Shown: positions 1 through 39,968 of the stretch, one piece after another
How the letters are laid out: each line of letters starts with the position of its first letter
Numbering within the stretch: position 1 is the first letter of the stretch
Sequence record: OQ680138.1
Reading direction: 5' to 3' (one strand)
DNA: 39,968 nt
DNA from: Escherichia phage PH1061
Translations under genes and position numbers: made by a program
The notes under the pieces: model-generated
Databases searched by the model: none
Told to the model about the DNA's origin: nothing
What the model saw: the letters and a program-made list of their open reading frames with translations, nothing else

Positions 1-111
1 ACTCATGGTGACTTCAGTCATCTTCACGCTAACCCACTGATATGCAAGTAATTCTGACTTAACTATCACTATAGGACTCAAGGTCTAAGACTCCAAGTGA
101 AAGACCAAAGA
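1..111. repeat. Window-end overlap: 1..111 is identical to 39858..39968 (circular-permutation or assembly wrap); includes the 3' end of the last early ORF (1..51) and a phage promoter
   Basis: Direct comparison of the first and last lines of the window: actcatggtgacttcag...caagtgaaagaccaaaga is present at both ends. Confidence 0.95.
57..79 (+). promoter_or_regulatory. Phage RNAP promoter, consensus TTAACTATCACTATAGGA, +1 G near 74, upstream of the RNAP gene
   Basis: Matches the 11-copy consensus in the unique genome; duplicate of 39914..39936. Confidence 0.7.
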
Positions 112-148
112 GACTTTAAGTGAAAGACTAATAACAAGGACTTTAAGT

Positions 149-3376: not shown

Positions 3377-3399
3377 CCTAAACTATCACTATAGGATTA
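3377..3399 (+). promoter_or_regulatory. Phage RNAP promoter (phi1.1-like), CTAAACTATCACTATAGGA, +1 near 3394
   Basis: Consensus match. Confidence 0.8.
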
Positions 3400-3404
3400 G
3401 ACTC

Positions 3405-3431
3405 AAGGTCATGACTCAAAGTCGTGGCCTT
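3405..3431 (+). promoter_or_regulatory. RNase III-type processing hairpin (R1.1-like): 11-bp stem AAGGUCAUGAC / GUCGUGGCCUU, 5-nt loop
   Basis: Stem-loop read from sequence; paralogous to hairpins at 11404 and 34622 with compensatory changes; position matches T7 R1.1. Confidence 0.65.
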
Positions 3432-3473
3432 CATGATTAACCCTATAACCTAAACAACTGGAGATTTAACCAC

Positions 3474-5333: not shown

Positions 5334-5339
5334 CGTCAA

Positions 5340-5378
5340 CCCAGTGGTCTCATGACTGCTGGGTTTCTCTGCTTTGTG
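5340..5378 (+). terminator. Rho-independent terminator (early terminator TE analog): 10-bp stem CCCAGUGGUC / GACUGCUGGG, loop UCAU, then U-rich tail
   Basis: Read from sequence; located after ligase/HNH as T7 TE follows gene 1.3. Confidence 0.65.
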
Positions 5379-6159: not shown

Positions 6160-6237
6160 CTGGTGCTTTAGACAGTGGGTCTCAACCGGGAATGTGGACT
6201 ACCTGTCCATGTACCATATGTGGAAGGAGAAAGGACT

Positions 6238-6396
6238 ATGAGCCTTGAAGAGAAGAAATACATCGTGGAGCTTGAGGGTCGCGTTCAGTCCTTCGAGGTT
6301 CCGGTGTACGCAAAGTCTCTTGAAGAGGCTACCCTGAAGTCCCAAGAGTATGAGGACGCTGGGTTTGTGGTCGGACGAATCCGTCCTGAGACCTAA
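6238..6396 (+). CDS. 2: Gp2-like inhibitor of host RNA polymerase, 52 aa
   Basis: [14 protein letters not shown] matches T7 gp2 SFEVPIYAETLDEA; strong RBS GGAAGGAGAAAGGACT; the track ORF's GTG start at 6175 is less likely. Confidence 0.8.
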
Positions 6397-7604: not shown

Positions 7605-8059
7605 TGACTACCTGTAAAGACCTTGAAGTTGGAACACGTTACAGATTCTCAAAGAACACCCTGCTGAATAATCCCCAATTCACTGATGCTGTTTTCGAAA
7701 AGCGAGAAGACCATAGCGTAATTGTGGAGAAGGGGTGGCATCCTGAGGATTACATCGGTGAGACTACCAGCTGGAATGGTCACGAGACCTACAGTGTAGA
7801 AGTTGTTGAACAGCCTCAGGTCCTTCCAGCTTCAAGTGTCCCTCCTGTCACCGTTAAACGTGAAGTCCTGACCATCAACAAGATTGGTGTAGGTCAGACG
7901 TTCATCGTCCACGGTAAGCCTGACGAAGTGTACGTGAAGATTAGCAACTCTCACGTCTTCAACCACAAGCGACTCCAGATGCACACGACTGACGCACAGC
8001 GCTTCCAGTCACATCTGAATCTGGTGGTAGTAGAACTAGTTGTTTATAATGGAAAGTGA
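7604..8059 (+). CDS. Hypothetical protein, 151 aa, between endonuclease I and lysozyme (no T7 counterpart)
   Basis: ORF with ATGA-type coupling to gene 3 and RBS AAAGGAG; no recognisable motif. Confidence 0.6.
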   Translation: MTTCKDLEVGTRYRFSKNTLLNNPQFTDAVFEKREDHSVIVEKGWHPEDYIGETTSWNGHETYSVEVVEQPQVLPASSVPPVTVKREVLTINKIGVGQTFIVHGKPDEVYVKISNSHVFNHKRLQMHTTDAQRFQSHLNLVVVELVVYNGK

Positions 8060-8420
8060 CTGCATCGAGTGGGCTAAGAGTCGCAATAAGGATGGCTATG
8101 GTAGACGTAAATTCCGTGGTCAATCTATGGGTGCTCATAGAGCAGCTTGGATAGAGACCAATGGTGCTATACCGGGAGGTCTTGTCGTAAGACACAAGTG
8201 TGATAACCGTGCATGCGTAAACATTGAGCACCTTGAGTTGGGGACTCAGGCAGAAAACATGATGGACTGCTCAGTACGCAGGACATTTAATTCAAAACTA
8301 ACTGAAGATGACGTTGAGGATATTCGCACCTCAAGCGAGACCCTTAAGTTTATGGCTGAAAAATACTCAGTAAGTGAGACAACCATAAGTCGAATCAGGA
8401 ACCACAAGAGGTGGAAATAA
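8049..8420 (+). CDS. HNH homing endonuclease (family B), about 123 aa
   Basis: Motif RHKCDNRACVNIEHLELGTQAEN; lower GC than surroundings; paralog of 26877..27326. Confidence 0.8.
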   Translation: MESDCIEWAKSRNKDGYGRRKFRGQSMGAHRAAWIETNGAIPGGLVVRHKCDNRACVNIEHLELGTQAENMMDCSVRRTFNSKLTEDDVEDIRTSSETLKFMAEKYSVSETTISRIRNHKRWK

Positions 8421-8422
8421 TA

Positions 8423-8887
8423 ATGGGAAGTAAAGTACAATTCATGCCACGCAAGTCAACTGACGCTATCTTCGTTCACTGTTCGGCTACCAAGCCAGAT
8501 ATGGACATCGGGGTAGAGACCATCCGTATGTGGCATAAACAGCAAGGCTGGCTGGACGTAGGCTACCACTTTATCATCAAGCGCGATGGCACTGTGGAAG
8601 AGGGTCGCCCGGTCAATGTCGTAGGGTCACACGTTAAGGACTGGAACTCCAAGTCCGTAGGCGTCTGCCTTGTAGGTGGAATTGACGCTAAGGGCAAGTT
8701 TGAAGCTAACTTCACTCCGGCCCAGATGAACTCCCTGCGCAACAAGCTGGAGGAGCTTATGAGTAAGTACCCTAATGCAGAGCTAATGGCCCATCATTCA
8801 GTAGCAGCCAAGGCCTGTCCGAGTTTCGACGTGAAGCGATGGTGGACCAAGAATGAACTGGTTACATCTGACCGCGAATCAGTTTAG
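8423..8887 (+). CDS. 3.5: Lysozyme / N-acetylmuramoyl-L-alanine amidase (T7 gp3.5 homolog)
   Basis: DAIFVHCSATKP, WLDVGYHFIIKRDGTVEEGR and CPSFD match T7 lysozyme; start set at ATG with RBS rather than the track's upstream start. Confidence 0.93.
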   Translation: MGSKVQFMPRKSTDAIFVHCSATKPDMDIGVETIRMWHKQQGWLDVGYHFIIKRDGTVEEGRPVNVVGSHVKDWNSKSVGVCLVGGIDAKGKFEANFTPAQMNSLRNKLEELMSKYPNAELMAHHSVAAKACPSFDVKRWWTKNELVTSDRESV

Positions 8888-9209
8888 TATCGACCCATCT
8901 AGTCCCTCAGGTCTATCCAGAAATGGTAAGCCTACTGGATGGGACGCTGGTAGATATTGGAGGACTAAGGTTAAAGGGAGGCCAGTAATGTGCCACGTCA
9001 TAATCATGATGCTCAAAACTGGAGGTCCTCTACCCGATGGAATGGAAGTTGACCATATTGACCGTGACGGCCATAACAACAGGATTGACAACCTCAGGAT
9101 TGTGACTAGGCAAGTCAACGTATGCAACACCAGCGTTAGGAAGGACTCAAAGTCTTTCAAAACATCTAATGGAGCCATCGAATGGCTAGGGGAGCAACTC
9201 AATGATTAA
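8853..9209 (+). CDS. HNH homing endonuclease (family A), about 118 aa
   Basis: Motif VDHIDRDGHNNRIDNLRIVTRQVN; overlaps the 3' end of the lysozyme gene; lower GC; paralog of 4953..5333. Confidence 0.75.
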   Translation: MNWLHLTANQFSIDPSSPSGLSRNGKPTGWDAGRYWRTKVKGRPVMCHVIIMMLKTGGPLPDGMEVDHIDRDGHNNRIDNLRIVTRQVNVCNTSVRKDSKSFKTSNGAIEWLGEQLND

Positions 9210-9417
9210 ACTTATCGAATTTCTTGGTCGCCTGGTGGTGCGTGGTTATCGTCGTGCTGCGGTACTGGAACGAAAGGTAGAAAAGAAGACTGCTGACGGT
9301 GCGGCTGAGGCTGCTGCTTTGGCTGACAAGCTGACCATCGCGTCACTGGAAGCTGGCATGAAGGCACGTCAAGCTGACACCAAAGCTGACCAGTTGGCTC
9401 AGTTCTTCAAAGACTAA
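9202..9417 (+). CDS. Hypothetical protein, 71 aa
   Basis: ORF with RBS; Ala/Lys-rich predicted helical protein. Confidence 0.55.
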   Translation: MIKLIEFLGRLVVRGYRRAAVLERKVEKKTADGAAEAAALADKLTIASLEAGMKARQADTKADQLAQFFKD

Positions 9418-9435
9418 ACTATCACCTTAGGGATG
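9413..9435 (+). promoter_or_regulatory. Phage RNAP promoter variant (phi4-like), CTAAACTATCACCTTAGGGA
   Basis: Two mismatches at -4/-3 relative to consensus; located upstream of primase-helicase. Confidence 0.5.
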
Positions 9436-9482
9436 GGACCACGAGTCCTGTCCCTCTGTTCGCATTTGTGATTAAGGAGTGA

Positions 9483-11393: not shown

Positions 11394-11403
11394 GTCTAGA
11401 CTC

Positions 11404-11428
11404 AAGGTCATTCACATCGAGTGGCCTT
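11404..11428 (+). promoter_or_regulatory. RNase III-type processing hairpin (R4.7-like): 10-bp stem AAGGUCAUUC / GAGUGGCCUU
   Basis: Paralog of 3405 and 34622 hairpins with conserved flanks TAGACTCAAGG and ATGATTA. Confidence 0.65.
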
Positions 11429-11456
11429 TATGATTAGACTAAACGGAGGATTAACC

Positions 11457-23483: not shown

Positions 23484-23506
23484 CCTTAACTATCACTATA
23501 GGGACT
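23484..23506 (+). promoter_or_regulatory. Phage RNAP promoter (phi13-like), CCTTAACTATCACTATAGGGA
   Basis: Consensus match. Confidence 0.85.
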
Positions 23507-34610: not shown

Positions 34611-34621
34611 GTGTTAGACTC

Positions 34622-34648
34622 AAGGTCATTACTATATGTAGTGGCCTT
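34622..34648 (+). promoter_or_regulatory. RNase III-type processing hairpin (R18.5-like): 11-bp stem AAGGUCAUUAC / GUAGUGGCCUU
   Basis: Third paralog of the conserved hairpin family; position matches T7 R18.5. Confidence 0.65.
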
Positions 34649-34711
34649 TATGGTTAACACTAACTAGTGGAGTAGACTCTACGTGAAATCTGATAAACCG
34701 GGAGGGCAACT

Positions 34712-37618: not shown

Positions 37619-37825
37619 TCTCACAGTTCAAGAACCTCAAGTCTCCCCATAGGCCCTCTTTAAGTCCAGACCAAAGGCCCTACCCCAGTCTATCATAAGG
37701 TTAGACCGATGGTCAAGACTTCAGGTCAACGATAGGTCTAGGCTATGGCTGGAGGTCAGGACGATAGGTTGGGACTATGGGTCTTCTTTGAGTCTCTATC
37801 TGTATAGTGTTATAGTATAACATTA
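37619..37825. repeat. Predicted genome left end and terminal-repeat region (collapsed to one copy); begins TCTCACAGTT...
   Basis: TCTCACAG...CCCCATAGG... resembles the T7 left terminus (TCTCACAGTGTACGG...CCCCCATAGGGGG); exact repeat length not determinable from a single copy. Confidence 0.55.
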
Positions 37826-37828
37826 CGT

Positions 37829-37930
37829 CCTACAGCCTACAGTCTCACTAACCTACAGTATCAACCATAAGACACCAACACCTACAGTCATAGACCTACA
37901 GTTAATAGACACAAGGCTATAGACTTACGG
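37829..37930. repeat. Array of at least 5 CCTACAG heptamers plus a CTTACGG variant following the predicted terminal repeat
   Basis: Read from sequence. Confidence 0.7.
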
Positions 37931-38013
37931 TCAAAGACATGTTAGTCAAAGACTATATCCTCTTACACCATGAGGCCGACGATAGCTTAATCAATATTAT
38001 TTAAGATTACCTA

Positions 38014-38043
38014 TTGACTACAGGTCTAGACTATGGCTTAATA
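38014..38043 (+). promoter_or_regulatory. Host sigma70-type early promoter (A1-like): -35 TTGACT, about 17-18 bp spacer, -10 CTTAAT/TTAATA
   Basis: Read from sequence; position as T7 A1. Confidence 0.5.
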
Positions 38044-38154
38044 GCTTCCGTCAACACGACACGGCACCAACCGGATAGTGAAGACGCCGGGTCATCCCGG
38101 TTAAGTAGACAGCCTGATAAGTCATACGAACAACAGGCAGATGACAGAAAGTAG

Positions 38155-38184
38155 TTGACAAGCAGTAACGACTTAACGTAGTAT
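38155..38184 (+). promoter_or_regulatory. Host sigma70-type early promoter (A2-like): -35 TTGACA, 18-bp spacer, -10 TAGTAT
   Basis: Upstream block GGATAGTGAAGACGCCGGG...AGTAGACAGCCTGATAAGTC resembles the T7 A1-A2 region (CAACCGGATAAGTAGACAGCCTGATAAGTCG). Confidence 0.6.
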
Positions 38185-38205
38185 GCACCACATCAAGTCG
38201 TTACG

Positions 38206-38333: not shown

Positions 38334-38365
38334 CAGGGTCTTTGAGTCTACATCTGAAGGCCCTG
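38334..38365 (+). promoter_or_regulatory. R0.3-like RNase III hairpin (9-bp stem CAGGGUCUU / AAGGCCCUG) downstream of the conserved CTCTTTAACAATCTGG box
   Basis: CTCTTTAACAATCTGGATAAA matches T7 CTCTTTAACAATCTGGTAAATAG upstream of gene 0.3. Confidence 0.55.
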
Positions 38366-38413
38366 ACTGATAGTCACTAACACACACACAAACAACTTTG
38401 AGAGGATATAACT

Positions 38414-38923
38414 ATGGAACGTAACGCTAACGCGTACTATGAGCTGCTGGCTGCAACTGTTGAAGCATTTAACGAGTGCATTCAGTACGACAAAATAGCT
38501 GAAGGTGATGACTACCATGATGTGCTGCATGAAGTCGTAGATAGTCATGTTCCGCACTATTACCACGAGATTTTCACGGTGATGGCTGCTGATGGTATAG
38601 ACATTGAGTTTGAGGACACTGGGCTGATGCCTGAGACCAAGGACGTAACGCGTATACTGCAGGCTCGCATCTATGAGGCATTGTATAACGACGTGTCTAA
38701 TAGCTCGGATGTGGTCTGGTTTGAGGCTGAAGAGAGCGACGAGGATGACGAATATTGGGTGGTTGACGCTACGACAGGTGTAATCATTGAGCAAGCTGTA
38801 TCACTTGATGTCGCTACTGCATGTGCCAAAGATCACTATGCGCTAGGTCGCCACCTGAAGGTCGAGGACATCAACGATAACGTAGTGTTCGACCCTGCGG
38901 CTGCTGAAGAGGACTGCGAGTAA
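38414..38923 (+). CDS. 0.3: Ocr-like DNA-mimic anti-restriction protein (gene 0.3) with a roughly 50 aa C-terminal extension, 169 aa
   Basis: [45 protein letters not shown] matches T7 Ocr [45 protein letters not shown]; T7 Ocr is 117 aa. Confidence 0.9.
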
Positions 38924-39206: not shown

Positions 39207-39277
39207 GTGATAAACGAGAGGTCATCTGACTGATAGGTGGCCTCAAAGATTATCACTTAAATTGATAGGAGTTAACT

Positions 39278-39382: not shown

Positions 39383-39582
39383 CTATGAGTCTTGCACTAT
39401 TGATAGCCATATGCTATGGACTTATCGCCTACGTGCTGGGGAGAGACATCAACAAAGCGCGTAAGGTCTACAAATTCAACTATGTACGTCTGGGTCGCTG
39501 GACTGTACGTCAACCTAACGGGCGATTCATGCGCAACTTAGCGAACGTCTGGGATATAGCAACTCTTGGGAGCAAACTGTAA
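39379..39582 (+). CDS. Small early membrane protein, 67 aa
   Basis: ATGA overlap with the preceding peptide; hydrophobic N-terminus SLALLIAICYGLIAYVLG; the track's TTG start at 39262 is less likely. Confidence 0.5.
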   Translation: MTMSLALLIAICYGLIAYVLGRDINKARKVYKFNYVRLGRWTVRQPNGRFMRNLANVWDIATLGSKL

Positions 39583-39908
39583 TGAGTAAATCTTATGGCA
39601 TCAACTTGGTCCATGCATTTGACGCAGACCTTAATCTGCTTTCAGCACTAGCTACAGGCTACCGTCACGGGACCTCAAGTCACACCATTCGTCAACAGCA
39701 GGAGCGTGACCGTGTACTACAGGCACGACTACGGGCCGAGGGACATAAGGCCGAGCTGATGTGTCTGGCGTATGGTGGACGACCAATCACCGACGATGGT
39801 AAACTTCTGGTCTCAGGCTGGAAGGCGATAGACCAACGGTCAACCATCAAGCACACGACTCATGGTGACTTCAGTCATCTTCACGCTAACCCACTGATAT
39901 GCAAGTAA
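39582..39908 (+). CDS. Hypothetical early protein, 108 aa, at the position of T7 gene 0.7; no protein-kinase motifs
   Basis: TAATG coupling with the previous ORF; the 3' end is duplicated at window positions 1..51. Confidence 0.6.
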   Translation: MSKSYGINLVHAFDADLNLLSALATGYRHGTSSHTIRQQQERDRVLQARLRAEGHKAELMCLAYGGRPITDDGKLLVSGWKAIDQRSTIKHTTHGDFSHLHANPLICK

Positions 39909-39913
39909 TTCTG

Positions 39914-39936
39914 ACTTAACTATCACTATAGGACTC
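39914..39936 (+). promoter_or_regulatory. Phage RNAP promoter upstream of the RNAP gene (same element as 57..79)
   Basis: TTAACTATCACTATAGGA. Confidence 0.7.
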
Positions 39937-39968
39937 AAGGTCTAAGACTCCAAGTGAAAGACCAAAGA

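Follow-up and report, generated by a model that had tools for sequence, protein, structure and literature searches.

In 1991, Dubendorff and Studier are said to have engineered a T7 “autogene,” in which the gene for T7 RNA polymerase (RNAP) was placed under a T7 promoter. Like the locus described here, that construct set a polymerase gene under its cognate promoter, but it was synthetic and reportedly clonable only with tight repression, whereas the present arrangement is natural and belongs to a lytic programme of about 20 minutes. The idea of a polymerase feeding back on its own gene has already been published for other phages. In Pseudomonas phage LUZ100, the phi1 promoter lies directly upstream of the RNAP gene, its start site has been mapped, and positive feedback has been proposed (PMC10134795). 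There, read-through by the host RNAP would prime the system and self-amplification would follow, which is also how we read the present locus; the LUZ100 loop is however thought to be gated by the MarR-type repressor of a lysogeny module, and the phage studied here has no such module. In Vibrio phage phiA318, sequence data led to a proposal of autoregulation through a phage promoter that lies ahead of the RNAP gene (PMC4099482), although that promoter precedes a kinase gene as well as the RNAP gene, and the phage belongs to a different genus.

The nearest precedents are found in database records. A promoter before gene 1, the polymerase gene, is a standard annotated feature of K1F-like coliphages, and as such it is already known and not new. 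The record of phage EcoDS1 carries a “promoter phi” at this place, and predicted promoters are annotated before gene 1 in the Citrobacter phages CR8 and CR44b, with CR8 displaying the same architecture but another specificity. Compared with these three, our phage is a different isolate in which otherwise nothing of substance differs. As to the specificity itself, T7 RNAP with a grafted K1F specificity loop was active in vivo on a promoter with the K1F -12 to -7 consensus (PMC3458549). A 2026 Kayfunavirus genome paper notes a copy of the repeat CTWAACTATCACTATAGG at the 3′-end of the gene preceding the RNAP gene (PMC13298934), while the papers on Kvp1, Citrobacter SH and Hafnia phage Ca contain nothing on the gene-1 promoter, and a literature search found no start-site or transcript map for any Kayfunavirus. 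This article compares the polymerase locus of Escherichia phage PH1061 (OQ680138.1) with these systems and with that of T7. The whole stretch of 39,968 nucleotides analyzed is called “the window” throughout. Its sequence suggests, with good confidence, that positions 57–79 work as a promoter for the single-subunit RNAP encoded by the phage, the leftmost one in a K1F-like genome, and that positive feedback primed by the host is its most likely consequence.

The window covers the whole genome of a phage from the K1F group (genus Kayfunavirus), a T7-like podovirus. Its closest database matches, Escherichia phages SHAK9454 and LI10P1, share 94.3% identity with it over 3.4 kb. Positions 1–111 are identical to 39858–39968, an exact assembly overlap of 111 bp, so that about 39,857 bp remain as the true genome length. 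The assembly was circularised and the contig cut arbitrarily inside the gp0.38-like gene, and the start of the window is not a genome end. Alignment to the left end of EcoDS1 places the physical left end near position 37619. Just inside the terminal repeat lie arrays of short repeats (ACCTACAGT, AACCATAAG), seen both at about 37840–37900 in the window and at the left ends of four related loci (L001, L003, L004 and L016); such arrays are typical of T7-group left ends. The hexamer ATCTGT is depleted over the whole window, with 12 copies on both strands vs. 26.9 expected. One copy (37798–37803) falls at the concatemer-junction position annotated in EcoDS1, and the longer ATCTGTT is found at 2646–2652, within the 3′ part of gene 1. 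The motif resembles the class II pause and termination signal of T7.

The early region is located at the 3′-end of the window and directly upstream of gene 1, and it consists, in order, of sigma-70-like promoters, ocr (38414–38923), small open reading frames (ORFs), and a gp0.38-like ORF (39582–39908, + strand) whose stop codon corresponds to window positions 49–51. The best of the sigma-70-like early promoters, TTGACA-18-TAGTAT (38155–38184, + strand), is in a stretch that aligns with EcoDS1 1–639, where the EcoDS1 record annotates host RNAP promoters, and the first gene-1 transcripts presumably come from it. Gene 1 (149–2830, + strand) encodes a single-subunit RNAP of 893 amino acids (Pfam RNA_pol PF00940, E 1e-106; RPOL_N) with the specificity loop TRLNLMFLGSFNLQ. 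The early unit of the host RNAP ends at a TE-like intrinsic terminator (5338–5365, + strand), whose position matches TE in the EcoDS1 annotation. Further downstream are genes for a gp2-type inhibitor of the host RNAP (6175–6396, + strand; Pfam PF16857, E 5e-20) and a gp3.5-type amidase/lysozyme (8411–8887, + strand; Pfam Amidase_2, E 9e-17). The latter is flanked by two HNH endonuclease ORFs (8040–8420 and 8853–9209; Pfam HNH_3, E 1e-16 and 3e-15), which are probably mobile homing endonuclease insertions. The gp3.5 protein of T7 is an inhibitor of the phage RNAP, and by analogy the product of 8411–8887 may play the same role here.

The promoter before gene 1 is a 23-bp element (ACTTAACTATCACTATAGGACTC; 57–79, + strand) that extends from -17 to +6 and belongs to the K1F specificity class. 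It starts 5 nt past the gp0.38-like stop codon and ends 70 nt before the ATG of gene 1, on the same strand as all genes. Its +1 position is G74, the first G of GGA, where we infer transcription to start, as we also infer the size of any feedback; with the ATG at 149, this gives a leader of 75 nt. The 23 bp are identical to promoter phi of EcoDS1 (GenBank EU734172, 2244–2266), which has the same spacing and the same place between gp0.38 and gene 1. The element is repeated many times in the genome: the 15-mer ACTATCACTATAGGA has 14 matches at three mismatches or fewer against 0.93 expected, a count that none of 100 shuffles reached, and there are 10 distinct CACT[A/G]TAGG sites, all on the + strand. 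Scored with a matrix built from the genome's other nine promoters, the gene-1 site reaches 30.1 bits, while those nine, scored leave-one-out, range from 28.3 to 34.0 bits, and the best sequence from outside the family does not exceed 17.6 bits. A gap of more than 5 bits separates the gene-1 promoter from any non-family sequence and from a probable eleventh phage promoter at 9414–9436 (ACTAAACTATCACCTTAGGGATG, 24.8 bits), which has a degenerate melting region and an ORF start (9486) just downstream. The first-pass annotation had described a full-consensus phage promoter about 75 bp upstream of gene 1. Both the promoter and the 75-nt distance are borne out, but the consensus is not full: 18 of 19 positions agree, the sole departure being a T for A at -14, a variant common to the promoters at 23501 and 37033.

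With its family match, its orientation and intergenic position, and a cognate RNAP whose specificity loop tracks the promoter, the site takes its place among the K1F-class promoters of the T7 group (Studiervirinae). The sequence also appears at 39914–39936 (+ strand), and because positions 1–111 are identical to 39858–39968, this is the 57–79 site seen twice and not a separate element; the overlap rules out two promoters, one at each end of the window. A matrix scan between the left end (~37619) and gene 1 found no second promoter of the phiOL type above 11 bits, so the gene-1 promoter is the leftmost phage promoter in K1F-like phages.

How does this compare with T7 itself? For the T7 elements we use the names phiOL (the left-end class II promoter) and R1 (the RNase III site). 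At some 50 loci of the T7, T3 and K11 types, the best match that the 250 nt next to gene 1 offer to the phage's own consensus covers 10–13 of 19 positions, which is chance level. The interval before gene 1 has an RNase III-type hairpin, and the nearest own-type promoter mostly stands at the left-end (phiOL) position, 2–3.4 kb before gene 1. The phiOL of T7 resembles the 57–79 promoter in that no phage promoter lies further left and that its transcripts would likewise head for gene 1, but it lies about 2.7 kb upstream of that gene instead of 75 nt. R1 of T7 sits immediately upstream of gene 1, in the position held by the promoter in the window, and the window's leader is without the hairpin that the T7, T3 and K11 types have in place of a promoter within 250 nt. 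The earlier claim that T7 has no phage promoter before gene 1 is thus correct for the nearest 250 nt in the T7, T3 and K11 types, but it fails further upstream, where the phiOL-position promoter is found. The contrast between K1F-like and T7-type phages is one of distance, and not of presence vs. absence: the gene-1 promoter takes the place of both T7's R1 hairpin and its phiOL-position promoter.

Signs of selection on the site come from its relatives. Eighty loci encoding relatives of the polymerase were fetched, and for each phage its own consensus was derived from its other promoters. Each of the 24 usable Kayfunavirus- and CR8-type relatives has an own-type promoter between -75 and -87 relative to the ATG of gene 1, which matches the respective consensus at 16–19 of 19 positions. 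In Kayfunavirus-type loci (at least 88% RNAP identity to the window) it lies 75–81 nt upstream of the ATG, and in Citrobacter phage CR8 (genus Caroctavirus, 78% RNAP identity) at -87. The specificity of the site is not constant: GW1-type phages have TTAAACCCTCACTATAGG at all promoters including the gene-1 site, together with an RNAP loop, TRLDLMFLGTFRLQ, that carries T3-like D and R residues where the window has TRLNLMFLGSFNLQ, and CR8 has AAGGAAGGTACACTATAGG at all its promoters, the gene-1 site again included. Promoter specificity and RNAP specificity loop therefore change together in the K1F-, GW1- and CR8-type lineages. The two loci of the Cronobacter phage GW1 type (L018 and L040) also stand as a compact natural example of polymerase-promoter co-evolution: they use a T3-like AACCCTCAC core at all promoters despite an RNAP 88% identical to the window's, the switch comprising N to D and N to R changes in the loop as well as changes in the N-terminal A+T-recognition region.

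Among the 24 aligned relatives, mean identity to the window is 0.96 over the promoter (57–79), as compared with 0.965–0.97 at codon positions 1 and 2 of gene 1, 0.81 at its third positions, and 0.68 at the third positions of the upstream ORF. Conservation of the promoter equals that of non-synonymous codon positions. A 131-nt query that includes the site matched 220 phage records, of which 168 showed at least 95% identity. Four search hits (H13, H40, H73 and H157) are labelled as Acinetobacter, Enterococcus and Staphylococcus phages, yet are near-identical to coliphage-type Kayfunavirus, which probably reflects host mislabelling or database contamination. In L012, L013, L014, L020 and L021 (promoter at -81) and in L002 (ASO2B, at -75), a base of the melting (TATA) region is non-consensus at the gene-1 promoter only: the L012 group has CACTAAAGG and ASO2B has CACTTTAGG, while the other promoters there have CACTATAGG. 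The deviation, confined to this site, tells against the preferred reading, since the gene-1 promoter of these phages may be weak, or may be a tuned-down feedback promoter. Outside the group, L083, a relative of Pseudomonas phages 3MF5 and phTUNS with 58% RNAP identity, has TTAAAAACCCTCACT, the core of its own promoters, at about 99 nt before gene 1, and a gene-1-proximal promoter may thus occur in further genera.

The rest of the gene-1 leader (80–148, + strand) is A-rich, with 63% A+T vs. 50% in the genome, and is unstructured. It folds no better than its shuffles, with a z-score of -0.03 in the window and of about 0 in Kayfunavirus relatives. Its mean identity among the 24 relatives is 0.91, vs. 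0.81 at the third codon positions of gene 1. The short direct repeats noticed in the first-pass annotation do exist, both exact and found nowhere else in the genome: AAGTGAAAGAC at 95–105 and 118–128 (period 23) and GACTTTAAGT at 112–121 and 139–148 (period 27), all on the + strand. Their conservation as repeats is only partial, the upstream copies being lost or mutated in L012-, L018- and ASO2B-type lineages. The first copy of AAGTGAAAGAC varies in the GW1-type and L012-type lineages, and the first copy of GACTTTAAGT, which contains the near-palindrome ACTTTAAGT, reads GACTCTAAGT in several relatives, whereas the second copy of GACTTTAAGT, which abuts the ATG, is invariant in 24 of 24. When the A-rich leader was shuffled 2000 times with its dinucleotides preserved, 30 shuffles (1.5%) contained an exact repeat of at least 10 nt. 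Tandem Repeats Finder (minimum score 30) returned no rows, and a tandem array was set aside in favor of just two dispersed exact repeats. Two copies of ACTTTAAGT, an otherwise rare element, stand 27–28 nt from each other in the gene-1 leader of both Kayfunavirus and CR8. A hairpin between the two copies, although part of the minimum-energy fold, was rejected because the 5′ copy mutates without compensation in relatives.

The final 17 nt of the leader (AAGGACTTTAAGT and the ATG) are invariant among the 24 aligned relatives. The Shine-Dalgarno sequence, AAGGA (136–140, + strand), is likewise invariant and lies 8 nt before the ATG. It is weak, as had been claimed: its pairing with the anti-Shine-Dalgarno is worth -5.1 kcal/mol and ranks 34th among 45 candidate ORFs, several of those ranked below being probably mis-called starts. 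The stretch ACUUUAAG partly matches the T7 gene 10 leader, a resemblance that might suggest a translational enhancer but carries no weight in our reading. At its 5′ side, the leader carries GACTCAAGGTC (75–85, + strand), the 5′ half-motif of an RNase III-type site without the 3′ half. The same 11-mer opens hairpins at 3400, 11399 and 34617, but 74–115 folds into a weak hairpin of -9 kcal/mol, vs. -18 to -25 kcal/mol at those three true RNase III-type sites. With the half-motif alone and a leader z-score near 0, an RNase III site at the R1 position, or any structured leader, was rejected. The three hairpins form a family, TAGACTCAAGGTCAT...GTGGCCTTTATGATTA (3398–3445, 11397–11440 and 34615–34665; z from -3.4 to -4.4), that resembles the RNase III processing sites of T7, and two further RNase III-type hairpins are located in the early region (~38334–38366 and ~39218–39245). 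A gathering-threshold scan of the whole window for Rfam families gave no hits.

How might such a locus work? A terminator scan of the interval from the early promoters to gene 1 found nothing terminator-like. Because sigma-70-like promoters are located upstream with no terminator in between, gene 1 remains within reach of host transcription, and the host RNAP must prime the loop. Between the 57–79 promoter and the polymerase ORF, the same scan and the leader z-score revealed neither a terminator nor a stable structure, and a promoter of the family directly upstream of an open path makes self-transcription of gene 1 a natural consequence. The locus thus combines an unblocked leader with an independent source of the first polymerase, the upstream sigma-70-like promoters. 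In the sequence of events that we propose, the host RNAP would start at the sigma-70-type promoters (~38,000–38,200) and transcribe the small early genes, then gene 1, as far as the terminator at 5338–5365. The first polymerase molecules would then bind 57–79, start at G74 and re-transcribe gene 1 on the unstructured 75-nt leader, yielding more polymerase mRNA. This supply would outlast the silencing of the host RNAP by gp2, and the transcripts would run on into the downstream class II genes. The loop would be limited by the weak Shine-Dalgarno sequence and later, by analogy with T7, by the lysozyme-type RNAP inhibitor. The same weak Shine-Dalgarno may limit the extra protein obtained from extra gene-1 mRNA, which counts against feedback.

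Could the site be a non-functional look-alike, a decaying relic, or an artefact of the duplicated end? It does score lowest when the ten promoters are compared with the nine-site matrix, and its second appearance stems solely from the 111-bp overlap. One real copy is left, however, once the overlap is removed, and the covariation with RNAP specificity in three lineages, the conservation on a par with non-synonymous positions and the 220 matching records speak against a relic or a chance look-alike, making this reading extremely unlikely. A more serious question is what a real promoter is selected for. Its position would also suit a role that is not autoregulatory: as the leftmost phage promoter and a substitute for phiOL, it could serve genome entry or the handover of middle genes to the fast phage RNAP, or prime replication, with self-transcription of gene 1 as a by-product. 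The phiOL position of the nearest promoter in T7-, T3- and K11-type phages fits this idea, as do the lack of any other promoter from the left end to the gene-1 site in Kayfunavirus and the A+T-rich leader. Yet the 75–87 nt spacing to the ATG is fixed in three lineages of differing specificity, the site lies 2.3 kb inside the genome and not at its end, and nothing like the very A+T-rich T7 origin follows the promoter. We consider it rather unlikely that this role is the main one, and it does not in any case exclude feedback, since the two are not mutually exclusive.

The leader invites another explanation, in which the repeats (AAGTGAAAGAC twice, and GACTTTAAGT twice with its ACTTTAAGT) would serve as the operator of some protein or RNA that controls gene 1 translation or promoter clearance, thereby adding negative control. 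The excess of leader identity over synonymous sites, the invariance of the last 17 nt, and the paired ACTTTAAGT shared by Kayfunavirus and CR8 leaders all agree with it. But the upstream copies are lost or mutated in three types of lineage, the leader is of low complexity and repeats of this length turn up among its shuffles, folding of the leader and its relatives gave no conserved structure, and no candidate binding factor came to light, so that an operator appears very improbable. Broader, and quite improbable too, is the proposal that the early-to-middle switch of K1F- and CR8-like phages is unlike that of T7: the leftmost promoter would have moved to the polymerase gene and R1 been dropped, polymerase synthesis would be self-sustaining and independent of the host RNAP, and the conserved leader, with its paired ACTTTAAGT and invariant weak ribosome site, would act as a brake or operator.

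Host-primed positive feedback thus stays the preferred reading, with indirect experimental support from the grafted K1F loop and the mapped LUZ100 start site, and autoregulation is a reasonable interpretation of the Kayfunavirus gene-1 promoter as deduced from the DNA. To the existing annotations, the present comparison makes two small additions: the covariation argument for selection on the site, and the replacement of the R1 hairpin and the phiOL-position promoter by a single element. It follows that the textbook rule drawn from T7, by which the polymerase gene is an early gene transcribed strictly by the host, fails across close relatives: throughout a whole genus, with 220 database records containing the region, the polymerase gene is linked to a promoter of the polymerase itself. 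This is useful for modelling T7-like gene-expression programmes, for engineering K1F-type phages, and for the use of K1F-type orthogonal polymerases.
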